Positions 3,956-50,047 are shown, counted from the first letter of the stretch. The stretch: DNA of 61,922 bases from an uncultured Eggerthellaceae bacterium (GCA_934631995.1 CAKTYF010000001.1:1-61922), one strand, 5' to 3'. A program made the numbers and translations. The notes: a model not told the origin generated them from the sequence alone.

Positions 3956-4031
3956 AAAATCGTTCACAGTTATTGAAAAAAGCGACTTTATTGGCATAAA
4001 CTCTCAAAAAGCGATAACTGTGAACGATTTT
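3956..4031. repeat. 76-bp hairpin-forming repeat, left copy flanking the DUF559 cassette
   Basis: aaaatcgttcacagttat ...40 nt... ataactgtgaacgatttt. It is ~95% identical to 5119..5194. Confidence 0.85.
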
Positions 4032-4052
4032 TAAAAGGAGGGATATATATCA

Positions 4053-5120
4053 ATGGAGAATGTCGTTCTTTCGGGGAGTGATGCTGTTTCTTTTTTGACG
4101 TCTTCTTTGGTGAAGCAGCTTGATGCCGATAATGAATTTGCAGCATATGTCTCCCGGTCATCGAATAATTTCATGGCCTATCTTTCGGGTTCAATGGATT
4201 TTACGCCGCTCCTTTGTTTCGTTGAGGGCCGTCCGAGGATGTCGAAACAAGAGGGTGCTCAGCTTGCGAAGATGCTTTCGGTTTCATTGCCTTTGCATAT
4301 CATGGTTTCCTCGGCATCGTGCCGTCGAAACTCTAAGAGCATGCGTTGCTCGGTTCAACCTGGCGGCATTCCCGGTGATTTATGCTTTAAGGTGGCAGAT
4401 GGTCTTTATTGTATTTTGCCCGAGCTTGCTTTGTTGCAGCTTGCTAGAGAATGCACGGATATCCAAATTGTTGTGCTCATGAGCATGTTGTTTGGGGTTT
4501 TTGCCAAAGACAGAGAAACGGGCGGTCTTGTGCCTCGCCGAAGCGTAACAACGCCTGCTAAAGTTGCTGCGTTTATTGAATCGTGCGAGCAGAGCTGTTT
4601 GAAGGTGCCTAATGGACTCTCGCGTGTTAAAAAGCTTGTTCCCTTAGCTGTTTGCGGGGCGGCAAGCCCAAAGGAAATTGAATGTGCTCTTAGATTGGGA
4701 TATCCAGTTGAACTGGGAGGATGTGGTCTTGGCATTCCCGAAATGAACTACCGGCTGGATATTCCATCAACAATGCGCGCTCGCTATTGCGATTTGTACT
4801 GGCCCGAGCAAAATGTTGCAGTGGAATATCATGGGGCATTCGAGCATGCTTTGCCCGGTTCTCTTGAGGCAGATGCCCGCCATGGTAATGATCTGGCTTC
4901 TATTGGTGTTCCTATATTCAATATAACAGCAGGTCAGTTAAGAAATCTATCTTCTTTTAACCATGTTGCACGATTGGTGGAGAAACAAATCTTTGCATAT
5001 AAAAAACCGCATGCACATAAATGCAACAGGATTCTTTTTCCGTCCACTGCGGTGTTTCATGACAAGCAGCAAGCCTTGAGAGACCAAATTGATGCTGCTT
5101 TTGCTCTCTTCGGATTCTAA
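4053..5120 (+). CDS. DUF559 / Vsr-like (PD-(D/E)xK fold) endonuclease-domain protein
   Basis: 355 aa. The C-terminal pattern RYCDLYWPEQNVAVEYHGAFEH...ARHGNDLASIGVPIFNIT matches DUF559-type proteins. RBS aaaaggaggg is present, and GC is lower than the flanks by eye. Confidence 0.6.
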   Translation: MENVVLSGSDAVSFLTSSLVKQLDADNEFAAYVSRSSNNFMAYLSGSMDFTPLLCFVEGRPRMSKQEGAQLAKMLSVSLPLHIMVSSASCRRNSKSMRCSVQPGGIPGDLCFKVADGLYCILPELALLQLARECTDIQIVVLMSMLFGVFAKDRETGGLVPRRSVTTPAKVAAFIESCEQSCLKVPNGLSRVKKLVPLAVCGAASPKEIECALRLGYPVELGGCGLGIPEMNYRLDIPSTMRARYCDLYWPEQNVAVEYHGAFEHALPGSLEADARHGNDLASIGVPIFNITAGQLRNLSSFNHVARLVEKQIFAYKKPHAHKCNRILFPSTAVFHDKQQALRDQIDAAFALFGF

Positions 5121-8509: not shown

Positions 8510-11500
8510 ATGCGAAATGCCCCATTTCGAAAAAACCTGGGAGCTTTGACCAACAAAGCGTTTCGGGTTTTTTTGACGGGATCTATTGTTCTGTCATTTA
8601 GTCCGGCAACGGCTTTGGCAAGCGAGATTCCCCAGGACGGAAGTGCATCAAGTGCGTTGACCTCATGGATGCAAACGCAAAAAGAAGAACCGGCCGACAC
8701 CAGTGCTACCAACATCGATTCGACCGATTCCTCTGAAGTAGAGAACATGATGCTCTCTGAAGGAAATTATACCCAATTTGCACTTTCTCCGGCCACCCTT
8801 TCTGCTTTTGAAGCAGGGAAAACTTACGCTCCGGGTGTGTATACGGGCAACGCGACCGTGACCAACAAGGGCGCCGACGATTGGACGACGTACCAGATTT
8901 CCGTAAACGTCACCATTGACGAGAGCGGAAAAATCAGCGCAGTGGCGCTTACGGATGATTCCTACAAAAATGCCGCTGCTGACAGCTCCGATAACGAAAC
9001 GTATCTCGAAAACGCCGAGCTGGGAACGCGTAAGGCAACGGGCGTAGCAGCGCAGATTGTGCAGGCGCAATCCGTTGAAGGGGTGCAGGCTGTTTCCGGA
9101 GCCACGTATTCAAGCGCCGCGCTTGTGCAGGCGGTAGCGGATGCGCTGTCGAAGGCGGTTGCCGAAACACCCGACGAGTACGTGTACTTGTATGCTGCGA
9201 TTCCCTATAGCGAGTACTATGCCGCAGAAGACGTGCAGGCGGCGGGATCCAATGCTGCCGGCACCCAGGTGGATACGCACAACGAAGCAGATACGGGTGC
9301 GTTTGACGTTGTTTCCCGTGCCACAACGAATCACGGCCTTCATCGCGGCAGCTACCAAAACACGGCCATTATTTATGGTACAAGTGGTGCAACCTATAAC
9401 GTGAGTTCGTGGAATAGCGGTTCAGAAGCTGTTTTGGAAGATGGAACAACTATTACGTTTAGCCGCGGCAACATTACCGCAGGTGAGACGACCGACGTTA
9501 TGGACCACTACGAGATTACGGGCTTCAAATACGTTCCCGTTGCGGTAAAAAGCGCCGATTCGGATGCCTTCAAAGCAAAGTATTCCGTGGTAGAAAACGG
9601 CGGCACGCTTGCGGGGGGCTATACCGAACAGCAGTTGAACAGCTACAACGTTGTTGCCAACGTAGATGCAAACACGAATGGCTTGAAAGTTGCTACGAAA
9701 AACGATGAAACGGGCGACTTCTCGTTCGGAAAGCGCCAGACGGGAACAACTTCGGGCGTGAAAGATTCTGCGCTGAAAGTAGCCGATGTTTCCACGTTGG
9801 GCGTAACAACGAAAAACGCGAAGACAGGTGCGGCGCTTGCTGGTTCGTATGGCGATTTCCTGCGTGTTGACTTGAAATCGAATTATGGCGACCTGGGCGC
9901 CAATATGCAGGCGGTTTTCTGGGAGTATTACGGCTCGGGCGATACGGTGCTGGCAACGTACGGAACGAAGTTCGCTGCGGATAACTGGATGCATAAGTCC
10001 AATGGCATTCAGCTGGGCCTTACGGAATCGGCGCGTTGCACGCTTCCCCAGGGCACCGATGGCACGGGCAAATGGAAAGTGACTATTTGCGCTTTGGGCT
10101 ACGAAGATACCGTTTTGACGCTGGACGTCGATGAAGGCGACATCAACAACGCGCATGTGGTAAGCAGCACGGAAGCTCTTGAGCAGGCAATATCCGCCGC
10201 AGAAGCCTTGACTGAAGCCGACTACACTGCTGCATCGTGGGCTTCGCTTTCCGTTGAGCTGGGCGAGGCGAAAGAGCAGCTTGCCCTTGCTCAGCAAGGT
10301 CCCACCAAGACCACCCAGGAAGCCGTTGACGAAGCGACTTCCCATTTGAACGAAGCAATAAAGAACCTGGTACATGCAGGCTTTACCACATGGGCCGCTA
10401 ATTATGCCGAACTCGGCGTGGACACGTCCACGGGCTACGATGCGGTCTCTTCGGCAACGAACTTCACCAGCCGTCACGCAAAAGACATTCCGGCTAACGT
10501 GCAGCGTGCGACCGGCGAAAACGGCACGGTAACGCTTACCGGCGTGAACAAAACCACAAAGGAAGCCACGGTTTCTCCGACTGTTTCTTCTTCCAGTTTT
10601 GCCTATAGCAACAAATACGGTACGGGTGAATTTGTTGTTGTGCCTGATGATACCGTTGAAGGCTACGTTTGGAACGAGTATCTGAATGCGATTACCGCCA
10701 TCACCATCAGCGACGGAACAACTACGGTAGGCACGCTGCCGTGGATTGACTATTACGGCGAGAACTCAACGGCGGGATTCCATTACAACAAGATTGAAAT
10801 CGCTGTGAATAGCGGCGAATCTGTTGGCTCGAATAAGGCGAATGTGACGCGTTTTGCTCCGTTCTACAATGAAGGCGCATCGCAAATTAAGGCGGGAACG
10901 TATACGATCACGGTTTACGCCGATGGCTACCAACCCCTTTCTACCGGCGTGAACGTTCTTCCCACGGCTGAGCAGCCGCTTTCGGTGAGAAGCACGTATG
11001 ATGGTGCGGCGGTAAAGCTTTCGGGCATGCCTGAAGACATGACGGGCGCAACGGCAACAGTTTCTTACACCGTTGGTTCGGGCCGCAACGCCAAGACGTA
11101 CTACCTTGCTCAGGACGCCGCAATATCCAATGGCGTTGTCAAGCTTTCGGAGTCTATGGTTGCAGGGACCACATACACCGTGGCAGTGAACAGCGCGAAC
11201 TACGCGCCTATGACGGCAAGCTTTACTCAGCAGGCCGAAGCAACCCTGACGCTTGATTTGGCTACTACGGCAACAAATCTCAAGGTGAGCGACACGTTTA
11301 ACGTGGCTATCTCCATGAAGGGCGACAAGATTACCACGGCTCAGGGCACGCTTTCGTTTGATGATAAAGTTGTCCGCCTGACGGGCTTTAGCACTGAGAA
11401 TTCTCAGCTTTCCGAAAAAGACAATTTCAAATGGACCGATGCAGGAATGTTTAGCTTCTTCGGAAACGATGCTGACTTTACCGAAGGTGGCGTTGTCGCT

Positions 11501-11881
11501 CAAGCGCAGTTCGAAGTCATTGGTGCGGGCGCCACGACTATCGCCCTGGATTCTTCTGCCGATAACGTTGCAAGTGTAGAAGGAAGCACGCGCGATCATG
11601 CCATTGTTGCTGGTGTTGCGGCCGAGGTGAGCGTGATTTCCGCACAAGCCGTAAAGGGCGACGTGAACAATAACGGTGCGATTAATATTGTGGACGCTCA
11701 GATTGCCTATGACCTTGCAACGAAGGTAATCGGGCCTGATTATGCGTCGCTTTTGTCAGTTGGCGAAGGCTGGTCGAAGGCTACCGTTGAATATACCGCC
11801 AATGTTAACGGCGATGATGCCATCGACGCTGCCGACGCATTTGCAATCCAGCATTATGCGCTTTTCAAATCGTGGGAATAA
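8510..11881 (+). CDS. Large secreted FMN-binding-domain surface protein with FIVAR-like, cohesin-like and dockerin-like modules
   Basis: 1123 aa with a signal peptide. The FMN_bind domain carries the flavinylation motif VSGATYSS. The C-terminus carries cohesin-like and dockerin repeats (GDVNNNGAINIVDA, ANVNGDDAIDAADA). Confidence 0.8.
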   Translation: MRNAPFRKNLGALTNKAFRVFLTGSIVLSFSPATALASEIPQDGSASSALTSWMQTQKEEPADTSATNIDSTDSSEVENMMLSEGNYTQFALSPATLSAFEAGKTYAPGVYTGNATVTNKGADDWTTYQISVNVTIDESGKISAVALTDDSYKNAAADSSDNETYLENAELGTRKATGVAAQIVQAQSVEGVQAVSGATYSSAALVQAVADALSKAVAETPDEYVYLYAAIPYSEYYAAEDVQAAGSNAAGTQVDTHNEADTGAFDVVSRATTNHGLHRGSYQNTAIIYGTSGATYNVSSWNSGSEAVLEDGTTITFSRGNITAGETTDVMDHYEITGFKYVPVAVKSADSDAFKAKYSVVENGGTLAGGYTEQQLNSYNVVANVDANTNGLKVATKNDETGDFSFGKRQTGTTSGVKDSALKVADVSTLGVTTKNAKTGAALAGSYGDFLRVDLKSNYGDLGANMQAVFWEYYGSGDTVLATYGTKFAADNWMHKSNGIQLGLTESARCTLPQGTDGTGKWKVTICALGYEDTVLTLDVDEGDINNAHVVSSTEALEQAISAAEALTEADYTAASWASLSVELGEAKEQLALAQQGPTKTTQEAVDEATSHLNEAIKNLVHAGFTTWAANYAELGVDTSTGYDAVSSATNFTSRHAKDIPANVQRATGENGTVTLTGVNKTTKEATVSPTVSSSSFAYSNKYGTGEFVVVPDDTVEGYVWNEYLNAITAITISDGTTTVGTLPWIDYYGENSTAGFHYNKIEIAVNSGESVGSNKANVTRFAPFYNEGASQIKAGTYTITVYADGYQPLSTGVNVLPTAEQPLSVRSTYDGAAVKLSGMPEDMTGATATVSYTVGSGRNAKTYYLAQDAAISNGVVKLSESMVAGTTYTVAVNSANYAPMTASFTQQAEATLTLDLATTATNLKVSDTFNVAISMKGDKITTAQGTLSFDDKVVRLTGFSTENSQLSEKDNFKWTDAGMFSFFGNDADFTEGGVVAQAQFEVIGAGATTIALDSSADNVASVEGSTRDHAIVAGVAAEVSVISAQAVKGDVNNNGAINIVDAQIAYDLATKVIGPDYASLLSVGEGWSKATVEYTANVNGDDAIDAADAFAIQHYALFKSWE

Positions 11882-11961
11882 TTTTCCACCATCTTTTTAG
11901 CAGTGCTTTTCAAGGTTCGGGCCTCGTTTTGGGGCCCGAATCGGCGTGAAAAGGAGTAACA

Positions 11962-13356
11962 ATGAAGTCAACAGCGCCATCGGAGTCGTCGTCTTCGCAG
12001 GTGAGCGCGCCGTCAAAACGCGCACGTCTTGCGCAGCTTGTCTTTTTGGTTCCAGGGTTTGCCGTAGCCGTTGCGGTTGGAGCGTCTATTGCGGGGTACG
12101 AGCCGCTTGTTTTTGATCCGTCGCTTTATGAGATTTCTGCCCCTGTCCAGGCGCAAGCGCTTGAGATTATTGACCCGAACGAAACAAGCGTGCGTGAAAC
12201 GGGTCGCGAATACGATGGATCGCTTGATCAAGAATCGTTCGAAATGCCAGCAAATGGCCTGGTAGATGGCGTGTATACCGCAGCTGCGTACGGCTATAAG
12301 AGCGACATCGAGGTTCAAGTGACCATTTTGCAAGGGGAAATCGTTGCAATCGATATTCTCTCGCAAAATGAAGATGCCGCTTACTTCAACCGTGCGATTG
12401 GAGTGGTGTCGTCCGTTTTGGCTGCCCAGAGCACGTCGGTTGATGCGGTGAGCGGAGCAACGTTTTCCAGCAAGGGAATCCTGCAGGCAATCAACAGGTG
12501 CCTTGCCCAGGCGGCCGCTAACCAAGACAGCATGACAGGCGAAGATTCTTCCGCGCCAGATGGCCCCGATACCCCTGCGGCGTCCGTTAAGCCGAGCGTT
12601 CCCAGTGCGCCTGTGGCGCCTGGTGAATCGACCGACCTTGAGGTCGAAGGGCTTTTGGATGGCGAATACACCTCGTATACGTATTGTGCCGACGAAAAGA
12701 ATCCCGATGCCTATCGGCCGTATTACCTTGCGGTAACCATTCGGGTTGAACAGGGCGCGGTTGCGGAAATTGTTGATGTTTACGGAACGGGGTCAGGCGA
12801 AAAAGACGCAGCTGAACTGGGAGAATACGACACAAAAAACGATACGTATCTCGATTGGGCGGCATGGGGAAGAACCATTCGCAGCGAGCACGTTACCTAT
12901 ACGGGCGTTGCTGACCAGATTGAAGCGGCCCATTATCAGCGCGTAGAGTCCTATGATGTGGTAAGTGGTGCTACGTATTCATCGGCGGCAGTTGCGAAAG
13001 GCTATAACGCCGCTCTTGATAAGGCGCGCCTGGCGTTCGCAGAGGCGTATCGCGCGGGGCTGATTGACAAGGATGGCAACCCCATAAAGCCAGAGGCCGA
13101 TAAATCCCCTTCTGATCAGCAAGAGGCGGTCGAGCCGGAAAAGAAGCCGGGGCTCGTAGACAAGGATGGGAAGCCCGTAAAACCGGAAGTAGGCAATGCG
13201 CCCAATCAGCAAGAGACTACCGAGCCGGAAAAGAAGCCGGAACTCGTAGACAAAGACGACAATCCCATAAAGTCGGAAGCGGACAAAGTTCCGGGTCAGC
13301 AAGAAGCGGTCGAACCGGAAAGGAAAGACAGCGAAGCGTTGGGTGATCGCTCGTGA
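11962..13356 (+). CDS. Membrane-anchored protein with two FMN-binding domains
   Basis: 464 aa with an N-terminal TM helix. Two flavinylation motifs (VDAVSGATFSS, YDVVSGATYSS) and a C-terminal 3x ~30-aa repeat. Confidence 0.8.
   Translation: MKSTAPSESSSSQVSAPSKRARLAQLVFLVPGFAVAVAVGASIAGYEPLVFDPSLYEISAPVQAQALEIIDPNETSVRETGREYDGSLDQESFEMPANGLVDGVYTAAAYGYKSDIEVQVTILQGEIVAIDILSQNEDAAYFNRAIGVVSSVLAAQSTSVDAVSGATFSSKGILQAINRCLAQAAANQDSMTGEDSSAPDGPDTPAASVKPSVPSAPVAPGESTDLEVEGLLDGEYTSYTYCADEKNPDAYRPYYLAVTIRVEQGAVAEIVDVYGTGSGEKDAAELGEYDTKNDTYLDWAAWGRTIRSEHVTYTGVADQIEAAHYQRVESYDVVSGATYSSAAVAKGYNAALDKARLAFAEAYRAGLIDKDGNPIKPEADKSPSDQQEAVEPEKKPGLVDKDGKPVKPEVGNAPNQQETTEPEKKPELVDKDDNPIKSEADKVPGQQEAVEPERKDSEALGDRS
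13060..13332 (+). repeat. Coding tandem repeat, three units of 90-93 nt (L[IV]DKDGxP[IV]KPE...EPEKKP)
   Basis: Units start at 13060, 13153 and 13243. Confidence 0.8.
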
Positions 13357-32830: not shown

Positions 32831-33721
32831 TTATTCTTCCCAAGTCGTTTTTTGCGGGTTCCAGGTTGCACTGCTTGTTGAACCGGAAAGCACTGGATTA
32901 AAAAGCGTGGCTGCAAGTTTGGCCGCCCCATCGATGCTCTGAAGCGAATTGGACAGGCCCATTTTGGAGCATAATTTCTCGAACTGTCGTTGCTGAGCGA
33001 CTTGCCATTCCTCGGGGATGCAGAACGCTTTTGGTAAGGTAATGCCGCGAACTCTGCTTTCCCTGAGTACACATTGTTGGAGGCTTCTTCCATCTATGCG
33101 ACACGTTGTCGCGTAAATTGCGATATCAACAAGGTCTTTCACCCGAGAGGATGCTCTTCCATCATGCCTTTCAGTTAAAGCGCAAAGCTTGTCTGCGAGT
33201 GAGTTTTCAACGGGGTAAACTAAATAGTCATACACTTGTATGCCTTCGACATTTACCCTGTCTGCAGGGGTGATAAATTCGGCTCTCTCAAGGGGGACCT
33301 TATCAACGACAAGGTCGATAGAAATGGGTTGCAAACATTTCGGGCCAAGCATCGGCTGAAAGACAATGCGTAATCCGCTTCGATATTCGTCTTCGACTTT
33401 TATTGGGTCTGCAGATTGAAGCATGAAACGCATATGATCGTCAAGATCGGTCGATGCAAGTGCTTCTAGCTTGCTAAGGGCATGTTCGAGTGACTGTTCT
33501 TTATAGAGCAGATCAATATCTCTTGTTACGCGCGCATCCACGGTTCTAGCGAGCATGCTTTGGCCGCCCTTCAACACGAAACTGTGTTGCGGATCATTGA
33601 AGATGCGGCAAAGAAGTCTGTGAAAATAGAAATCCGTTATCGCTCTGCTGGTGTCTAGGCTTGAATTCCTGGCAGAGGCTTTCACCGCCATTTCAAGTGC
33701 GGCTGGAGTTTTGTATCTCAT
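32831..33721 (-). CDS. AbiEii/AbiGii-family nucleotidyltransferase toxin (type IV TA)
   Basis: 296 aa from the ATG at 33721, 1 nt after the AbiEi stop. Motifs FVLKGGQSML and TRDIDLL. Confidence 0.85.
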   Translation of the reverse strand: MRYKTPAALEMAVKASARNSSLDTSRAITDFYFHRLLCRIFNDPQHSFVLKGGQSMLARTVDARVTRDIDLLYKEQSLEHALSKLEALASTDLDDHMRFMLQSADPIKVEDEYRSGLRIVFQPMLGPKCLQPISIDLVVDKVPLERAEFITPADRVNVEGIQVYDYLVYPVENSLADKLCALTERHDGRASSRVKDLVDIAIYATTCRIDGRSLQQCVLRESRVRGITLPKAFCIPEEWQVAQQRQFEKLCSKMGLSNSLQSIDGAAKLAATLFNPVLSGSTSSATWNPQKTTWEE

Positions 33722-33722
33722 T

Positions 33723-34364
33723 TTAGCTGCTCCCCTTTGGTGCTCTTCCTGCAAGGACACGGATTATTGATAGTGCATCCTGCACATTTTTCCTTTTCGA
33801 TTGGCAGGCAACGATTTTTTCCAGGCGTGCGAAGTTGAGGTTGCTTGCGGAGTTGAAGGCGTCCTCTACGAGAGACCATTCTTCATTATCAAGGCAGAGG
33901 TCAATAAGCGTTCGCTCAGGGCGCGTGACAGGAAGGCCCTTGATCCAGGTCACATCCTCAATGTCGATTTTTCTGAGGGCAAAATTCGCTGACTTCACGC
34001 GGGAGTTGATTCGCTGCGGCGCGTAGATACGGTAGGGCGATAGGTAGAAATCACCGAGCTCTTGCAGGCTTGCCGCGGTTGATCCGCCTATTGCAATTCC
34101 ATCCCAATTTTCAATTTGCATGCGCTCGTGGGTGAATGCCGATGGGGCAGTGAGTTTCCATATAGCTGCGAGCTCATCTGTGAAATCGCTTTGCGATCCA
34201 GCAAGCCGGTATGCGCCATGCATTATGCGTTCGGCTCGGCCGGATGCAACGGCTTGCGATAAGGCGTTGCGTGTAATTCCAAGTCGTGCTGCTTGCGCGG
34301 TGGTGAAGATCCCCTCCGAGGCAGAGAGTTCGTTGAGTGCTGTTATGTGGTTTGAATAGATCAT
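33723..34364 (-). CDS. AbiEi-family antitoxin / transcriptional regulator (type IV TA)
   Basis: 213 aa. The N-terminal wHTH is GIFTTAQAARLGITRNALSQAVASGRAERIMHGAYRL. Confidence 0.85.
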   Translation of the reverse strand: MIYSNHITALNELSASEGIFTTAQAARLGITRNALSQAVASGRAERIMHGAYRLAGSQSDFTDELAAIWKLTAPSAFTHERMQIENWDGIAIGGSTAASLQELGDFYLSPYRIYAPQRINSRVKSANFALRKIDIEDVTWIKGLPVTRPERTLIDLCLDNEEWSLVEDAFNSASNLNFARLEKIVACQSKRKNVQDALSIIRVLAGRAPKGSS

Positions 34365-42576: not shown

Positions 42577-42586
42577 TGCCGCTGCT

Positions 42587-42617
42587 TGTTGACAAATTAC
42601 CCCACCTTTTGTCAACA
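42587..42617. repeat. 31-nt palindromic intergenic repeat, copy 2 (perfect 10-bp arms), 10 nt after the ATPase stop
   Basis: tgttgacaaaTTACCCCACCTtttgtcaaca. Confidence 0.8.
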
Positions 42618-42726
42618 TTTGCGAGCCGAACCCATGCGTTTGCAGCGAGGTTTTATGATGCACGGCGGTGCATTGGGTGGCTTGAGGCTGCTGCGTGCCT
42701 TTTCTTCTGTTGATTTTGCCGCTGCT

Positions 42727-42953
42727 TGTTGGAAAACGACCCCCAAACTCGGGCAAATCGACGATATTCGGTGGTCGGAGCGGTAGGGTGAAAGCCGGAC
42801 CGGCAAGGCTGTTTTTTCGCAGCCGTCTGACCTGGTCTTTTGTGAACGATCATTTTGACAGATGCCCATAAAGCAGAAGAAGAGCCCCGATTGGGACTCT
42901 TCAACCACCGAATATCGTCGATTTGCCTGAATTCGCACCCGTTTTTCCAACAA
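42727..42953. mobile_element. 227-bp MITE-like element with ~50-bp imperfect terminal inverted repeats
   Basis: The left arm ttgttggaaaacg..ggcaaatcgacgatattcggtggt (42727-42775) is the reverse complement of 42904-42953, except for a ~12-nt internal block. Confidence 0.6.
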
Positions 42954-44265: not shown

Positions 44266-46608
44266 CTATTCTTTTCTGGCAAACGGAATCTTGAAACCTG
44301 GTTTGTCGATTGTATCTGCGCTTTCAGGCAAGGGCGGGGCGTAGGAGGACAAATCCTTTATGAGCTGGTTTAGCTTGTCGATTCTTACGGAGCTGTTTGC
44401 AAAGGTGACGCCGAACAGGCCGAATCTAAGGGATTGCTCTTTGCCTTCAAGGTACTCAACGTTATCGTACGGAACAAGCTTCTTCCTTGCTCCATTCACT
44501 ATTGGAACAATGCCGTGAACTGTGAAAATTAGATCAGTGCCGCCTTTCTTCTCAAGGTCGTCCAGGATGGCAAGTGTGCCGGCTATTAGTCCGTTCTCGT
44601 TCGACAACTTCTCGTTTGCTCGGAAATATCGTTCTTTTTTGGGGCTTTCACTCGTAAAGAAATCCACGTACGCAATCGATTGAACCGTTGTGGGGATAGC
44701 CTCTCTAATGAGCTCCATCATCTTCTGCTCACTCGATGTATCAGGGGATTTTACGATCGTCTCATCTCCAAGCAAGTCCACCGAAAAACGGCGGCAGGCA
44801 ATGGTTTCAACAACTTGGTCCCTTGTTGATTCGTAAAGCTCCGAAGGGCTGCTGAGTTCGTTTGCGGAGCAGAAGTCTTCAAGCGACTCTTCCATTATTG
44901 CGAGATCTTGCATCTCGGTACGAGATTGAACGTACTTGTCGTCTTCTTTTGTGAGGGCTGTGAAGAAGTTGGCGGTGTAATTGCCCATTTTCATATCCAG
45001 AAGGCGCTCTATATCCAGGTAGTTAAGCTGGCCCTGGTCGGCCTTTATCGCGAAATCGTTGATGTTCTTTCCGTTTGCTTTAAGGGCCTTTTCGATTTCG
45101 AAAGCCGCGGATTCCTTTGCGGATTCGCTCATGAAGCAAAAGCCGCAGCTTACTTCGAAGAGTTCGTTCATGAGGTCGATGATTCCATAGGGGATGTTTG
45201 CCTCCGCAACACGCTCCAGATATTCGTCTGCGGCTCTTGTGCTGGCGAAAAGCCTTTGGGTGTCATGTTTGCGGGATTGCACTGCCTCTTTCGAAGGCAG
45301 AAAGTAAGCATCGGGATACTCGTGCCGCACATCGGGCACGGGAATCAATTTGCCAAATTTGATAAGGTATTTCTCAAGAAGGGCTCTGATGACCAGATGG
45401 CATTTCTCGGTGAGGATGCCCTTTTGGGTCTCGAAGAAGCACGTTGCGGCGTTGTCTGCCGATTCTGATTGATTGGCGGGCAGGGGGAGCAGGTATTGGG
45501 AGCCAACCTGATTTGCCAGCGTTTCGTAGCGGTGGATGTAGTCGGCCGAGTTTGATTCGCTTGCCTTCCCAACGTAGATGCTGCTTAGCAGTTGGGCGTT
45601 CATGACGGTGTTGTACTGCTCGTTTACCAGCTGTCGTAGAAGATTTGCGGCCCGATTGAAATCGTTCATCTTGAGATAGGCAACAGAGGCAAGCTGAAGC
45701 ACATCATTGGCGCGCCCCGAGTATCTTACCGCCTCTTCAAGCAGCTTGCCAATATATTCGCAATCGTTATCGAAGTCTAGAAGATCAACAAGCTCCAGCG
45801 CGCATGCAGCGGCGATGGGGTCTTCGCGAAGGAGCGCATGGCTATTCGATTTTCGGTACTGTTCGAAGTGGCTTTTCGCAAGCGCAAGGTACACCTGCCT
45901 GGACTCATCGCTTAAATCCAGGGCCGATCGGGCAATCGAGTTGGCAGTGTTACCGAAGTTGTACCAGAAGGGAGGATACGCCGCGAACTCATCCTTGATG
46001 GTGTCAAGGCGGTCGTACTTTCGCAAAAGATCCCCGTCCATAAGAATGTTGTCGTATTGGGTTATCTGACGCTCGGTGAGTCGCAGCCTATCAGGGAAGT
46101 TGTAAGTTTCGGATAAGCGCCAGGCGGTATCGAAGAGCTCTCTTCTTAGTCCGTTGAATTGCTCAATAGCAGTGCGCTCAAGTTCCCAACGCTCCTTGTC
46201 GCGCTGAAGATTTGCTTCCGACTTCACCCTTCGGTAGTTCATATAGCCAATGCCAACTTGGGAGGCAAGCGAGACGGCCATTGTGACAGGGTTGCCGCCC
46301 GCAACAAGAAGCCCCACATTGGGAACAGCGGACCAGATGGCGTTTTTCATCTTTTGCTGGTATTCTCTTTCCACGAACTGTTTGTCAACCTCGTTGATTC
46401 TGAAGAACGTGATGGTATCCAGGATTTGCTTTAGGATGTTGAGAAGCGCCTCATCTTTGGGCATTTGCTCAAGGTTCAGGTTGTTGAGAATTGCCTCGTA
46501 TTCCTGCTCCATGACGTTGATGTCATCGTAATCTATGATTTGGGACACCGACACGGTACAAAGATTCAATGCGCATGCGGCCTTCAGCTGTTCTTGTGTG
46601 TACTCCAT
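44266..46608 (-). CDS. 780-aa hypothetical protein with no recognisable family; partner of the EEP nuclease
   Basis: Long uninterrupted ORF with plausible composition. Its start overlaps the upstream gene by 25 nt. It has a hydrophobic Gly-rich segment (~aa 95-125) and a helical repeat-like middle region. Confidence 0.7.
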   Translation of the reverse strand: MEYTQEQLKAACALNLCTVSVSQIIDYDDINVMEQEYEAILNNLNLEQMPKDEALLNILKQILDTITFFRINEVDKQFVEREYQQKMKNAIWSAVPNVGLLVAGGNPVTMAVSLASQVGIGYMNYRRVKSEANLQRDKERWELERTAIEQFNGLRRELFDTAWRLSETYNFPDRLRLTERQITQYDNILMDGDLLRKYDRLDTIKDEFAAYPPFWYNFGNTANSIARSALDLSDESRQVYLALAKSHFEQYRKSNSHALLREDPIAAACALELVDLLDFDNDCEYIGKLLEEAVRYSGRANDVLQLASVAYLKMNDFNRAANLLRQLVNEQYNTVMNAQLLSSIYVGKASESNSADYIHRYETLANQVGSQYLLPLPANQSESADNAATCFFETQKGILTEKCHLVIRALLEKYLIKFGKLIPVPDVRHEYPDAYFLPSKEAVQSRKHDTQRLFASTRAADEYLERVAEANIPYGIIDLMNELFEVSCGFCFMSESAKESAAFEIEKALKANGKNINDFAIKADQGQLNYLDIERLLDMKMGNYTANFFTALTKEDDKYVQSRTEMQDLAIMEESLEDFCSANELSSPSELYESTRDQVVETIACRRFSVDLLGDETIVKSPDTSSEQKMMELIREAIPTTVQSIAYVDFFTSESPKKERYFRANEKLSNENGLIAGTLAILDDLEKKGGTDLIFTVHGIVPIVNGARKKLVPYDNVEYLEGKEQSLRFGLFGVTFANSSVRIDKLNQLIKDLSSYAPPLPESADTIDKPGFKIPFARKE

Positions 46609-47615
46609 GAGAGGCTCCTTATTCCTGATTTAAGCTCCACGACTAGCTTGATTGGGACGTGGTCCGATACTTCCTTGCGATATTGTTCCAGTGCCTCGCG
46701 CGTGCTGGCAAGTGGTTCAACGCGTGCGGCTAAAAACGAAATGCCCTGGTTGGTTTCGTAATCGCTGTCATATGAGAAGTGGTCGTAGTTTTGCGAGTAG
46801 ATATCTGTGCCCGATTCGTCCATGGTATCGCTGTCGTGCTCCTCGTTAAGATTCTGGTAGGAGTACGATTCTTGCACTTGCTTCAAGGACGTCTTGTCGC
46901 GCTGAACGGTTCGTAATGTTCTGTTTTCGGCGAAGTAAGTGAACTCGGGGACGTTCATGCCGGATTCCCCTGCAAGGCAAAGGTTATAGTCTCCCATTAG
47001 GACGGTGTACGAGGACATGTTGGTCCCATAACGCTTCATTGAGACTTTGCGGTATATCTCTTTCGCTAAAGTTTCGAACTCCATTAACCTGAGTTCTTTC
47101 TGTCCGTATTTATCGGCGCAGATAGAGGGCGAGTTGAAGGCGATATGGGTGTTAATCAGCCGAAGTTCGAAGGGCGCACCGCCGGGCAATCCCGATGGGG
47201 TGAGCCTTACCACCATGGGCGGGCGAACAAGCGAGCCCTTGTGGATAAATGCGCCAGTGCTATCCCTGCTGATCGAGTATCCGTCCATTCTTTGGACGCT
47301 GCTTGGGGCTGTGTCTCCTTCGGGTCCCTTCACGAGTCTTAGTCGCTTGTTGTTCCAGATGAAGGCGTAGCCTTCGAGCTGCGCGGAAGAATTGCCGAGT
47401 GTCTTGTTTGTCTCCCGATATTCAGCGTCCCAGGAAGGGCCAAGATAGCCGCGAATCCGCTTCAAAGCAGACTCCGAACAGACTTCTTGGATGGCGATAG
47501 CATCGAATTTTTCATCTTTGATGATTTGGGCAATGCGCGCGAAGTTCTTTTTCGTCTCTTCAGTTGAGTCGTAGTTCAGCTTCTGAATGTTGAAAGACCC
47601 TATGACATAACTCAT
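46584..47615 (-). CDS. Endonuclease/exonuclease/phosphatase (DNase I-fold) family protein, no signal peptide
   Basis: EEP motifs in order: SFNIQ, AIQEV, INTHI, GDYN, YDHF, SDHVPI. The ATG at 47615 lies 5 nt after ggtgg. Confidence 0.8.
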   Translation of the reverse strand: MSYVIGSFNIQKLNYDSTEETKKNFARIAQIIKDEKFDAIAIQEVCSESALKRIRGYLGPSWDAEYRETNKTLGNSSAQLEGYAFIWNNKRLRLVKGPEGDTAPSSVQRMDGYSISRDSTGAFIHKGSLVRPPMVVRLTPSGLPGGAPFELRLINTHIAFNSPSICADKYGQKELRLMEFETLAKEIYRKVSMKRYGTNMSSYTVLMGDYNLCLAGESGMNVPEFTYFAENRTLRTVQRDKTSLKQVQESYSYQNLNEEHDSDTMDESGTDIYSQNYDHFSYDSDYETNQGISFLAARVEPLASTREALEQYRKEVSDHVPIKLVVELKSGIRSLSWSTHKNS

Positions 47616-47666
47616 TCGAACCACCGCTTATGAGATGCTATTCGTATTGTAATTGGTTTTACATAC

Positions 47667-47696
47667 ATGATATGCGTAGAATCTGCTAGCAAGCAA
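47667..47696 (-). promoter_or_regulatory. Putative sigma-70-type promoter of the EEP operon
   Basis: TTGCTT-18 nt-TATCAT on the minus strand, ~50 nt upstream of the ATG. It is preceded by a hairpin just after the upstream stop codon. Confidence 0.35.
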
Positions 47697-47708
47697 GGAG
47701 CCCTGCTG

Positions 47709-48158
47709 CTAGTTCTTCCTTTTCTTGCTCTTTTCGTCATCGTCGCTGCATGCGCTGAACAACCAAATGTATCCTGCGCCCATCATGAGCATGAGGCCGA
47801 GGACCGACATTGCGTAGAAGCTTGAGTCCGGGTTTCCGGACGCTTCGCCCAGAAAGTTTCCAAAGACCGCCATGACGATGCCTGCCACCACCAAGGCCAG
47901 TGATATTTTGACTTTTAGGCGTTTGGAGGCCTTTTCGTCTTCTCTTTTGGCGGCTTCCATTTCAAGCTCTTTCAAACGGATGAGGCGCTCGGTCTCTGAT
48001 CGCTTGACATCGGCTTCATCAATGCGACGGTATATGCGTTCGTTTTCGTTTTGCAGAACGATTTTTGCCCCGCAATATTGGCAAAACAGCTGGTCGCGAC
48101 CTTCTTCTATGCTAAGCGACGCGGAGCATTCGGGGCATTTCAGCGAAATCACCTTCAT
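47709..48158 (-). CDS. Zinc-ribbon / coiled-coil / 2-TM membrane protein
   Basis: 149 aa from the internal ATG (ATGA overlap with the upstream stop). It has CPEC...CQYCG, a charged helix, and two hydrophobic helices. Confidence 0.7.
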   Translation of the reverse strand: MKVISLKCPECSASLSIEEGRDQLFCQYCGAKIVLQNENERIYRRIDEADVKRSETERLIRLKELEMEAAKREDEKASKRLKVKISLALVVAGIVMAVFGNFLGEASGNPDSSFYAMSVLGLMLMMGAGYIWLFSACSDDDEKSKKRKN

Positions 48159-48613
48159 TGGGCGGCCTCGGGATGAGCGGCTAACCAAGCTTCGTTGCAG
48201 TCGGGACAAAGGCTTGCGTCGGGATTGTCCAGCAACCTGCCGCACTCGCGACAAGTGCCCACCAGATTTTCTTCGGTTACGTTGTTCTCGAATCCGCATT
48301 CCGTGCAAGTCCAATGCTCAGCGTCTGCGGCGAACCCTTCCTGGACGTTCAGGAAACACCCGCATTGGTCGCAGAACCAGAACACGTAGCCGTCTAGAAA
48401 CTCTTTTTCCGGAAGCAAGAAGTCGCCGGACTTGCATTCCCATGCTTCCGTTGTTTTGTTGAAACGCATCTCTTCTCCGCACAAGGGGCACTCCATCCAA
48501 CGTTTGACGTTCTTGATGAAGAAATAGCTGATTTGATCGGATATGCGTGTGGGATCAGGTGTTTTGTTCAGTATGCTTCCGATGCTCGCTGGTGCTGCGA
48601 GTTCATTGTCCAT
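48155..48613 (-). CDS. Multi-zinc-ribbon protein
   Basis: 152 aa with five CxxC pairs (CPLCG, CDQCG, CTECG, CRECG, CPDC). It overlaps the merR-like stop by 11 nt. Confidence 0.7.
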   Translation of the reverse strand: MDNELAAPASIGSILNKTPDPTRISDQISYFFIKNVKRWMECPLCGEEMRFNKTTEAWECKSGDFLLPEKEFLDGYVFWFCDQCGCFLNVQEGFAADAEHWTCTECGFENNVTEENLVGTCRECGRLLDNPDASLCPDCNEAWLAAHPEAAQ

Positions 48614-49388
48614 TCTGTGTCTCCTTGGATTCCTTGCACCAGGTATGTACAGCCTTAACTACGTGCTCTTTCGAGCCGTTGCCGCACATTTCTTCAAATG
48701 CGTTGGAAGTGTCGTTCTGCGATACAAGGCCGCTTACGAAATCAGCGAACATCTCGCGATATTCAGCTTCTTCAATTTCGGCCTCCGATTCCTTGTCGAA
48801 GGAGGAAATCATGCTCTGAAAATGATCGAAACATTCCGAAATAGCGTTGCTGGTGGCGTCTTCGTCGTTTCGTTGCGTAACAAGACCAACGACTATCAGG
48901 CTGTACCAGAACAGCATGAACATCTCCATCTCGTACGCATCGAGCTCGCTATCGAGTTTTGAAGCCTCTGATACAAGGGAGCCAAAGCATGCGGAGAAAT
49001 CTCGTTGTCCGTAAGCTACTAGGGAATCAATTTCCTGCAAGGCTGCGCGGGCTGAGTCCGATAGTTGACTTTCGATTTTGAAGAGCCTGATGGTCCGTAT
49101 GATGCCTTCGATATGCCGTTGCTCTTCGCGCAGGGCGGATACGAGCAAGTCATATTCGTTCGCAAGGTTGATGACAGGGGCGTCCAGAAGCTCCTTGACG
49201 TGTTCACGCGTATATCCCGCTTCGGTGAAGATCTTGATGACGATGAGCTTTTTAATGGCTTCGTCATCGTAGAGCCAGTAGCCAGCCTCGGTCTTCGCAG
49301 TTGGTGACAGAAGCCCCATTTGATCGTATCCCTGAAGTGCGCGCCGGGAAAGACCCGTGATCTTGCACACCTCGCTGAGCTTCTTCAT
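48603..49388 (-). CDS. MerR-family transcriptional regulator
   Basis: N-terminal HTH MKKLSEVCKITGLSRRALQGYDQMGLL. RBS aaggagg. Confidence 0.85.
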   Translation of the reverse strand: MKKLSEVCKITGLSRRALQGYDQMGLLSPTAKTEAGYWLYDDEAIKKLIVIKIFTEAGYTREHVKELLDAPVINLANEYDLLVSALREEQRHIEGIIRTIRLFKIESQLSDSARAALQEIDSLVAYGQRDFSACFGSLVSEASKLDSELDAYEMEMFMLFWYSLIVVGLVTQRNDEDATSNAISECFDHFQSMISSFDKESEAEIEEAEYREMFADFVSGLVSQNDTSNAFEEMCGNGSKEHVVKAVHTWCKESKETQNGQ

Positions 49389-49630
49389 TTCCTGCCTCCT
49401 TCATTACACATATCATAAATCTGCACACAACGTGCAAGTCAATACTATTTTCTCATGTATGGTTGCTGTGGGAAGGAAATCAGGGGAGGCGCCGTTTTGC
49501 CTTGGGCTTCTGCGACCTCCTTTTTCTTTTCCCGCAAAACAAAACGCTTGCTATTCGAGAAAAATGTGATAAAGTATCAAGGCTTATGTCTAGCTTTGGT
49601 CGGAAACCAAGGCATTAAGGAGAACCAAAA

Positions 49631-50047
49631 ATGAAGCAAGGAATTCATCCGGATTACGTGGAGTGCACCGTTCGCTGCACCTGCGGAAACACGTTCGTCA
49701 CCCGTTCTACCAAGCCTGAACTCAGGGTTGATATCTGCAGTGCCTGCCATCCGTTCTTCACGGGTACGCAGAAGCTGATCGACACTGGTGGACGCGTCCA
49801 GCGCTTTGCCGACAAGTTCGGTTCTGCAAAGGATATGGTTGCTCAGCGTGAGGCCGCAAAGAAGGCAGAGAAGGCTGCAAAGGCTGCTGAACTTGAGGCT
49901 GCAAAGAAGGCCGAGCGCGAGGCTAAGGCTGCTGCTAAGGCAGAGCGTGCTGCTGCTTACGCTGCTAAGGCTGCCGAGCAGGCTGTTGCTGAAGAAGCTG
50001 CTCCTGCTGAAGAGGCTGCACCGGCAGAGGAAGTTGCTGCCGAGTAA
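49631..50047 (+). CDS. rpmE: 50S ribosomal protein L31 (type A) with a ~65-aa Ala/Glu/Lys-rich C-terminal extension
   Basis: MKQGIHPDY...CTCGN...[10 protein letters not shown] core, followed by the tail [20 protein letters not shown]... Confidence 0.85.

Follow-up and report, generated by a model that had tools for sequence, protein, structure and literature searches.

Several bacterial immune systems, among them PARIS (AriA/AriB), Hachiman (HamA/HamB), Gabija and Septu, pair a nuclease effector with a larger partner that holds or activates the nuclease, and the STAND/NLR-like Avs proteins bring together TPR sensors, nuclease effectors and a central P-loop NTPase domain. CdtB of the cytolethal distending toxin is a DNase-I-like enzyme of the EEP superfamily, a secreted genotoxin that targets eukaryotic nuclei with the lectin-like partners CdtA and CdtC. 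Within a bacterial defence system, an EEP domain occurs fused in the YprA helicases of ARMADA type II, where it is predicted to be inactive (PMC12458937). Here we describe a gene pair in a stretch of 61,922 nucleotides from an uncultured Eggerthellaceae bacterium (GCA_934631995.1, CAKTYF010000001.1:1-61922; the whole stretch is hereafter the window), which encodes a 343-residue EEP-fold enzyme and a 780-residue partner; BIG is the name we use for this partner and its family. We give about an even chance to the reading that EEP-BIG is an undescribed anti-phage or anti-mobile-element module in which a predicted DNase effector would be controlled by BIG. An earlier note on the window had put the pair forward as a candidate undescribed defence or toxin system, a proposal now supported on comparative evidence only, since the tests of family membership, co-conservation and secretion, all run in silico, came out favourably.

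How does this pair compare with the described systems? By analogy, EEP-BIG resembles a PARIS- or Hachiman-like logic, the partner restraining the nuclease, and it has in common with these systems and with Gabija and Septu an operonic pair, defence-gene neighbourhoods, horizontal mobility and a patchy distribution. However, BIG has no ABC or AAA ATPase, helicase domain or conserved P-loop, the effector is of the EEP rather than the Toprim, PD-(D/E)xK or HNH type, and the PADLOC models of these systems are unmatched. The combination of TPR-like helical repeats beside a variable C-terminus with a predicted nuclease is reminiscent of Avs, but here the NTPase module is missing, BIG and the enzyme are separate polypeptides, and the TPR similarity extends over ~200 of 780 residues. 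With CdtB the pair shares a DNase-I-like EEP enzyme accompanied by a partner protein; EEP-BIG, by contrast, is intracellular and bacterial. Unlike the domain of the ARMADA II YprA helicases, the window enzyme stands alone and has an intact catalytic set. When both proteins were checked against PADLOC v2 (PADLOC-DB v2.0.0), no model matched, with 0 families for either at E ≤ 0.1. In the literature, the only EEP-based defence component encountered was the inactivated domain of ARMADA II YprA, other occurrences of 'EEP' being unrelated, in a survey whose thin coverage of subscription journals leaves absence unproven. What is new here is an unannotated family together with a fold that no named system has so far employed for its effector, while the nuclease-plus-partner cassette is of a known kind.

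The enzyme and its partner

Both genes lie on the minus strand, the EEP gene at 46584..47615 and the BIG gene at 44266..46608, and the public gene call for an identical contig agrees with our open reading frames (ORFs) in giving products of 343 and 780 residues. The EEP reading frame (46584..47624, minus) opens at a GTG; the ATG at 47615, which yields the 343-residue product, lies 5 nt downstream of a Shine-Dalgarno ribosome-binding site, GGTGG (47625-47621). The stop region of the EEP gene overlaps the start of the BIG gene by 25 nt (46584..46608), just as the earlier note had it, in an operonic arrangement that possibly entails translational coupling. At 50.2% GC, against 54.2% in the remaining window, the pair falls within the lowest 5% of equal-size windows. 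Its AT-richness is real but modest, and the earlier description of the pair as clearly AT-richer than its surroundings was right in direction and overstated in degree.

The enzyme has the complete ordered EEP catalytic set (N, E, H, D-x-N, D-H, S-D-H) that had been read from its sequence, and in an alignment of 49 homologues the positions concerned, N9, E44, H157, D209, N211, D278, H279, D318 and H319, are invariant or at least 90% conserved. Its AlphaFold2 model (pLDDT 89, pTM 0.90) adopts the four-layer alpha/beta-sandwich fold, for which Foldseek returned 175 PDB matches at E ≤ 1e-3 (best 7e-12; TM-score to the target at most 0.71). The matches at E 1e-11 to 1e-9 include an EEP protein of B. 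thetaiotaomicron as well as ANGEL2, DNase I, TDP2 and CNOT6L, and the top 50 contain no sphingomyelinase or inositol phosphatase. At the level of sequence, the family profile found DNase1L3 (4.4e-10) and DNase I (3e-7) in the PDB, among NCBIfam models the MnuA membrane nuclease comes nearest (1.6e-14 along the whole protein, 54.6 bits vs a cut-off of 185), and the xth (ExoIII/APE) profile matched only at E 0.0018. With Pfam PF03372 (Exo_endo_phos) the window protein scores 21.1 bits, short of the cut-off of 24.5, and most of the homologues have a precomputed match to this model.

With DNase I, DNase1L3 and MnuA, which provide the nearest solved sequences and the nearest NCBIfam model, the enzyme shares the EEP fold and a full set of catalytic residues in the same order. 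It differs from them in its length, which exceeds theirs by ~80 residues and takes in an additional helix (172-193, with invariant R176 and E179) and an acidic low-confidence loop (~240-275), in falling below the MnuA and Pfam cut-offs, in being encoded together with BIG, and in having neither signal peptide nor lipobox, hence in being cytoplasmic. A search of the protein for a signal peptide or transmembrane segment found none: the Kyte-Doolittle hydropathy in a 19-residue window (KD19; usual transmembrane threshold ~1.6) peaks at 0.58, in a protein whose N-terminus is polar, which agrees with the earlier claim that the protein is not secreted. Judging from these sequence features, the protein is apparently an active cytoplasmic EEP phosphodiesterase; DNA is the best-supported guess at its substrate, the term nuclease being drawn from similarity to EEP subfamilies.

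BIG yielded nothing beyond weak TPR matches in Pfam, NCBIfam, PADLOC v2, PHROGs and the PDB sequences. Its placement in a known family was rejected after Pfam searches with 52 members, sequence and profile searches of the PDB, and Foldseek searches of the PDB and BFVD gave TPR-type matches only. The earlier note was correct in assigning the protein to no characterised family and mistaken in calling it an orphan: a collection clustered at 90% contains at least 1,925 homologues and one clustered at 50% has 1,234 representatives, of which 529 reach E ≤ 1e-30; all are unnamed or 'hypothetical'. The AlphaFold2 model (pLDDT 81) is all-helical over residues 1-640, TPR-like at ~180-380, and beta-rich at 645-760, as foreseen from the sequence for the middle and the C-terminus. 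The regions of the protein are a highly conserved helical module (1-345), which takes in a Gly/Ala-rich hydrophobic hairpin (~94-125) and part of the TPR-like stretch (~180-380), a variable helical part (381-640) and the beta-rich domain (645-760). TPR_19 is found in 13 of 52 family members (best 6.5e-5), the window protein staying below the cut-off throughout, and the TPR matches of Foldseek (probability 1.0, ~200-400 columns) have a TM-score to the query of 0.16-0.19. In the model, TPR is one region of BIG, of ~200 of its 780 residues, and not the whole protein.

The hydrophobic segment, already remarked on for its glycines, lies at 98-116; the hairpin is conserved, with G119 and M123-N124-Y125-R126 invariant. 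With a hydropathy of 1.42 the segment is under the usual transmembrane threshold, and BIG as an integral membrane protein was rejected, this value being the KD19 maximum of the window protein and 1.5 the family median. Also discarded were homology of the hairpin to DUF697 (hhalign probability 0.7%), a Pfam match to the nuclease inhibitor NuiA at residues 31-75, attributed to chance (1 of 52 members, E 0.013), and a match to the colicin Ib profile, which is not significant (E 0.025) and lies outside the hairpin. A search for a P-loop found a Walker-A-like string in only 3 of 52 members, at differing positions, and no NTPase Pfam match in the 52. A search for the HEPN motif R-x(4-6)-H found a sole string, R252..H257, which is unconserved in the family consensus, and no invariant His. 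Mean pairwise identity in BIG is 63% over residues 1-345, 29% over 381-640 and 33% over 641-760, a gradient that has the pattern of a constant partner-binding module combined with a diversifying sensor.

The C-terminus of BIG is a hotspot of fusions (L numbers are our locus handles). In L081 the gene (9953-12376) includes a DUF697 domain (residues ~651-767), and the long variants in L030, L031, L041 and L042 have a ~90-residue C-terminal domain in common with adjacent small single-transmembrane proteins, which also occur in L053. In the metagenomic locus L095 (2173-4631) BIG is split into ORFs of 508 and 319 residues and a near-identical contig has an intact 818-residue gene, which suggests recent inactivation.

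Pairing, distribution and recurring neighbours

A pattern scan with each species represented by a single genome gave 115 BIG relatives, from which 79 loci were kept, 76 after redundancy removal. In 63 of the 76 the EEP gene is directly upstream of BIG, in another 8 it shares the strand at a distance of up to four genes, and 4 loci have none; the last locus lacks upstream sequence. Of the 75 informative loci, spread over four phyla, 71 thus have a same-strand EEP gene no more than four genes from BIG, and the two genes are indeed conserved together elsewhere. Among 59 homologous pairs the gap between them has a median of 15 nt, with 48 at 30 nt or less and 8 overlapping. In the reverse direction, both sampled EEP homologues at 37-39% identity directly precede a BIG-family gene (hidden Markov model E 1e-210 and 2e-283). 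BIG occurs alone in 4 non-redundant loci and the sample contained no solo EEP gene of this clade, as would be expected if the enzyme were dangerous alone. Loci in which BIG has no EEP neighbour are L007, L008, L079, L019, L025 and L034; the Solobacterium metagenome-assembled genome RUI216 holds both a solo BIG (L007) and a paired one (L035). In L012 (109-2052, Lachnospiraceae), two tandem EEP paralogues stand upstream of BIG.

The hosts of the BIG family belong to four phyla, Bacillota (Lachnospiraceae and others), Spirochaetota (Treponema), Bacteroidota (Bacteroidales) and that of the Eggerthellaceae, with a patchy distribution; the family occurs frequently in gut and rumen Bacillota, Treponema and Bacteroidales. 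The BIG lineage of the window recurs at 97% identity in two Eggerthellaceae metagenome-assembled genomes, and the other matches in species genomes are at 34-56%. In 59 of 63 loci the BIG gene has a lower GC content than its flanks, with a median difference of -4.7 points. A tblastn search of 50,697 phage and 72,556 plasmid records gave no match to BIG, the 2.9 M viral contigs of IMG/VR held one 6-kb fragment with a homologue, vs the 115 matches in species genomes, and there was no PHROG match. A phage- or plasmid-borne origin of the pair was rejected in view of this near-absence from phage, plasmid and viral collections. The family has been transferred into Eggerthellaceae.

Recurring neighbours were identified by clustering the genes around BIG loci. 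A regulator of the helix-turn-helix (HTH)-WYL type is present in 32 of the 79 genome loci, mostly as the gene immediately before EEP. This ~320-residue HTH-WYL(-WCX) protein, directly upstream of EEP-BIG in many loci, recalls the BrxR/CapW-type WYL regulators, which co-localise with defence systems (PMC9122601, PMC9122588, PMC11662680); by contrast, the window copy has a MerR-family regulator, and WYL regulators also govern non-immune DNA-damage genes. The WYL regulators DriD and CapW sense single-stranded DNA and DNA damage (PMC10853764, PMC11662680). Known defence genes adjoin the pair in several mutually unrelated loci. In L024, type I HsdM/HsdR lie immediately upstream, and in L015, DrmD-like SNF2, type IIG/DrmMI and DruE-like genes (DISARM/type IIG-like) come immediately downstream. 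L091-93 carry Mrr, Abi_2 and a PLD-DEAD-DUF3427 helicase, L003 (C. algidicarnis) has a STAND-like giant protein together with Mrr_cat and PDDEXK_2, and L088 has HsdS/DUF4145/DUF3800; a retron reverse transcriptase and PDC-S01 are found in others. Mobility genes keep the pair company as well. In L087 it is the cargo of a 14-kb mobilisable element with the order serine recombinase-HTH-EEP-BIG-Abi_2-Mob_Pre relaxase-D5-type primase, integrases or recombinases are near the pair in 11 loci, and XRE regulators and tyrosine recombinases recur.

The closest relatives outside the Eggerthellaceae (57% identity) are in L086 (1-6993), where they are preceded by a HATPase_c_3 protein, a WYL/WCX regulator, a 1,783-residue SACS + UvrD/AAA_11/AAA_12 helicase and a flavodoxin; these upstream genes may represent another uncharacterised defence cassette.

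The five-gene block and the rest of the window

As the earlier note had recognised, the pair belongs to a minus-strand group of five genes with MerR and zinc-ribbon members. The block (44266-49388, 50.4% GC) runs in the order MerR, Zn-ribbon, Zn-ribbon/transmembrane, EEP, BIG, with overlaps of 11, 4 and 25 nt and a single gap of 93 nt at its junctions, and each of its genes has 50-53% GC. It is flanked by SDR and P-type ATPase genes on one side and by rpmE-rpsL-rpsG-fusA on the other; no convincing att-like direct repeats or tRNA were found at its borders. The 93-nt gap, 5' of the EEP gene (47616..47708, minus), contains the ribosome-binding site and a weak promoter-like site, TTGCTT (47696-47691) and TATCAT (47672-47667) 18 nt apart on the minus strand, with 3 of 6 and 5 of 6 consensus matches in the -35 and the second hexamer. 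The sequence cited earlier as the pair's own promoter is therefore present, but it is under the threshold of our sigma-70 scan, and promoter-like sites in the region occur at chance level (5 observed vs 4.5 ± 2.0 expected from shuffles); a significant promoter of the pair was accordingly rejected.

The first gene of the block (48603..49388, minus) encodes a MerR-family regulator of 261 residues (PF13411, 3.6e-14). It stands where many other loci carry the WYL regulator and may perhaps, by inference only, control the EEP-BIG pair. The second (48155..48613, minus), an ORF with Zn-ribbon Pfam matches, encodes a multi-Zn-ribbon protein of 152 residues, overlaps both neighbours (4 nt, 11 nt) and is a possible member of the operon; similar Zn-ribbon repeats (E 8e-14) are found in a 647-residue protein directly 3' of BIG in the Solobacterium locus L035. 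The third (47709..48158, minus), likewise with Zn-ribbon Pfam matches, encodes ZnR-TM, a protein of 149 residues with Zn-ribbon, coiled coil and a C-terminal hydrophobic, predicted transmembrane segment, and is possibly co-transcribed with the pair. In L029 (Anaerovoracaceae) a ZnR-TM homologue with 42% identity follows BIG at a distance of 1.8 kb. The ZnR-TM family (homologues P0385-P0493) has at least 109 unannotated clusters in varied contexts, some without EEP-BIG; a homologue in L098 adjoins barnase-barstar and an MNT-like gene. The Zn-ribbon genes as general parts of the system were rejected, the ZnR-TM family being found without EEP-BIG and showing no synteny with L098; in the window they are possibly local operon members rather than defining parts.

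About 10 kb from EEP-BIG, an AbiEii nucleotidyltransferase toxin gene (32831-33721) and AbiEi_4 (33723-34364) form a minus-strand pair (32831-34364) that occupies the lowest-GC stretch of the window (~0.48) and is likely a second acquired defence or toxin-antitoxin locus. Another low-GC kilobase (0.463) is at 4001-5000, close to the window start. An Rfam L31-Coriobacteria ribosomal leader at 49593-49622 (plus strand), just 5' of rpmE, agrees with an Eggerthellaceae origin. The L31 protein itself (49631-50047, plus strand) has 138 residues, about twice the usual length, with a long repetitive Ala/Lys/Glu-rich C-terminal extension (DNA repeats at 49837-49955). In the intergenic region 3' of the P-type ATPase gene (42577-42933), one sequence of 27 nt is repeated directly (42577/42717, 85%) and another of 35 nt in inverted orientation (42746-42780 / 42899-42933, 89%); the region may represent a small repeat element or form a structured RNA.

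Proposed function and rival explanations

What can be discerned about the role of the pair? The cross-phylum pairing, the operonic spacing, the defence and mobile neighbours, the WYL regulators, the near-absence from phages and plasmids and the low GC argue for immunity, and that EEP-BIG is an immune module matching no named system is credible. In the scenario we propose, the pair would be a conflict module, self-contained and horizontally mobile, that most likely serves anti-phage or anti-mobile-element immunity of an abortive-infection or nuclease-release type. The EEP protein, as an active cytoplasmic DNase-I-like phosphodiesterase, would be the effector and intrinsically dangerous, and BIG, made alongside it from one transcript, would bind and restrain it, or localise and position it, with its N-terminal 345 residues. 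The fast-evolving C-terminal half of BIG, with its helical repeats, beta domain and variable fusions, might recognise a cue of infection, and perception of this cue would license DNA cleavage by the enzyme. Expression would often be under a WYL-type regulator that senses damage or single-stranded DNA, and in the window perhaps under MerR. The DNA substrate, a physical interaction of EEP with BIG, the role of BIG as inhibitor or sensor, the trigger and protection from phages are inferred.

A number of points weigh against this scenario. Its function is predicted, by guilt through association, and the association with defence genes is suggestive and not quantified, being read from individual loci; nothing defence-like is found in L001, L004 and L094 (3 of the 10 Pfam-annotated contexts), and the window copy lies outside any evident defence island, next to ribosomal genes. 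The lack of a PADLOC v2 model leaves the pair without precedent as a system. The EEP superfamily also holds phosphatases, lipid phosphodiesterases and RNA-end enzymes, Foldseek leaves the DNase I, TDP2, ANGEL2 and CCR4 subfamilies unseparated, and the profile alignments to DNase1L3 and DNase I span only the N-terminal half of the enzyme (residues 4-149). No NTPase or other signalling domain that would account for switching can be recognised in BIG. The N-terminal module of BIG, at 63% pairwise identity, is far more conserved than the presumed effector, at 37%, which is unusual for a mere inhibitor. A mirror-tree analysis of EEP-BIG co-evolution was set aside, the correlation (Pearson 0.38, Spearman 0.04) being driven by close relatives and uninformative at depth. 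Further caveats are that the pair has no promoter that stands out from chance and that the Zn-ribbon neighbours are not general partners.

Among the alternatives, a toxin-antitoxin or addiction module of mobile elements, which we consider unlikely, would make EEP a constitutively toxic DNase and BIG its dedicated inhibitor, the two stabilising the islands and mobile elements that carry them, with no dedicated phage sensing. The tight operonic pairing, the solo BIG genes alongside the lack of solo EEP genes in the sample, the transport of the pair by the integrative mobilisable element of L087, the integrases or recombinases nearby in 11 loci and the low GC of BIG relative to its flanks all suit such a module. 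However, a multi-domain protein of 780 residues, whose C-terminal half evolves fast and bears variable fusions, appears far too elaborate for simple neutralisation, the gene order is toxin-first, and the WYL regulators and the restriction-modification, Abi and DISARM-like neighbours suit immunity better. Toxin-antitoxin and abortive-infection roles are in any case not mutually exclusive.

It is likewise improbable that BIG, not EEP, is the heart of the system. BIG would then be a new kind of sensor or effector domain, perhaps a hairpin bundle that inserts into membranes like a colicin or an all-helical enzyme of an unrecognised type, and would work with membrane partners and possibly ADP-ribose chemistry. 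This idea draws on the N-terminal ~345 residues, which keep 63% identity across four phyla and have no relative in any library, and the conservation excess does leave room for BIG as the key catalytic or membrane-active component. Its proposed membrane partners are DUF697, small transmembrane proteins, TerB and AAA, and the possible ADP-ribose chemistry relates to ARH and macro/NADAR genes in ~15 loci. DUF697 membrane proteins adjoin the pair in 10 loci (9 non-redundant), in addition to the fusion to BIG in L081, and in L030, L031, L041 and L042 the small transmembrane proteins precede an AAA ATPase and a TerB protein. ADP-ribosylglycohydrolase (ARH) genes occur in 8 loci (L035, L036, L038, L039, L040, L043, L047, L058), directly preceding EEP in L035, L036, L038, L039 and L047 and standing between WYL and EEP in L036, L038 and L039 (Butyrivibrio/Mogibacterium), and macro or macro-NADAR genes occur in 6 (L014, L030, L045, L055, L060, L068) plus L096. 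The recurrence of these ADP-ribose-removing enzymes, which seems to exceed chance expectation by a good margin, hints at a link to ADP-ribosylation.

The same genes enter into the distinctly unlikely alternative of a module for processing DNA damage or adducts, in which a WYL regulator sensing single-stranded DNA, in the manner of DriD and CapW (PMC10853764, PMC11662680), would induce a TDP2/APE-like EEP enzyme that cleans DNA ends or adducts and is scaffolded by BIG. Its substrate may be ADP-ribosylated DNA, which would accommodate the ARH and macro genes, and TDP2 is among the top structural matches. However, the nearest relatives of the EEP profile are DNase I/DNase1L3 and MnuA rather than ExoIII/APE or TDP2, most loci, the window included, have no ARH or macro genes, and the patchy distribution suggestive of horizontal transfer, the low GC and the mobile-element and defence neighbours are atypical of repair genes. 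Finally, a membrane-directed system, with EEP as a lipid or small-molecule phosphodiesterase (sphingomyelinase/PLC-like or acting on a nucleotide signal) and BIG membrane-associated via its conserved Gly/Ala-rich hairpin, is very unlikely: the DUF697 neighbours and fusion, the small transmembrane, TerB and AAA proteins of other loci and the presence of such enzymes in a superfamily whose branches Foldseek cannot tell apart speak for it, but the hairpin is below transmembrane hydropathy and unrelated to DUF697 by hhalign, the best profile relatives of the enzyme are DNases, and sphingomyelinases and inositol phosphatases are missing from its top 50 structural matches.

The immune reading of EEP-BIG thus stands as one candidate among many in the field, and its surprise is moderate pending a phenotype. 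If it is confirmed, a DNase-I-fold EEP effector would join the nuclease repertoire of bacterial immunity, and if BIG itself should turn out to be the central component, the pair would be the first EEP-based immune system with an unseen activation logic. The contrast in conservation between the N-terminal module and the C-terminal half of BIG would offer a tractable model for how a dangerous cytoplasmic nuclease can be gated by something other than an NTPase. The BIG family is ready for addition to defence-annotation tools. Confirmation would also define a large blank family, of ~1,200 clusters at 50% identity that have no Pfam, NCBIfam or PADLOC model, in host groups whose phage defence is poorly charted.

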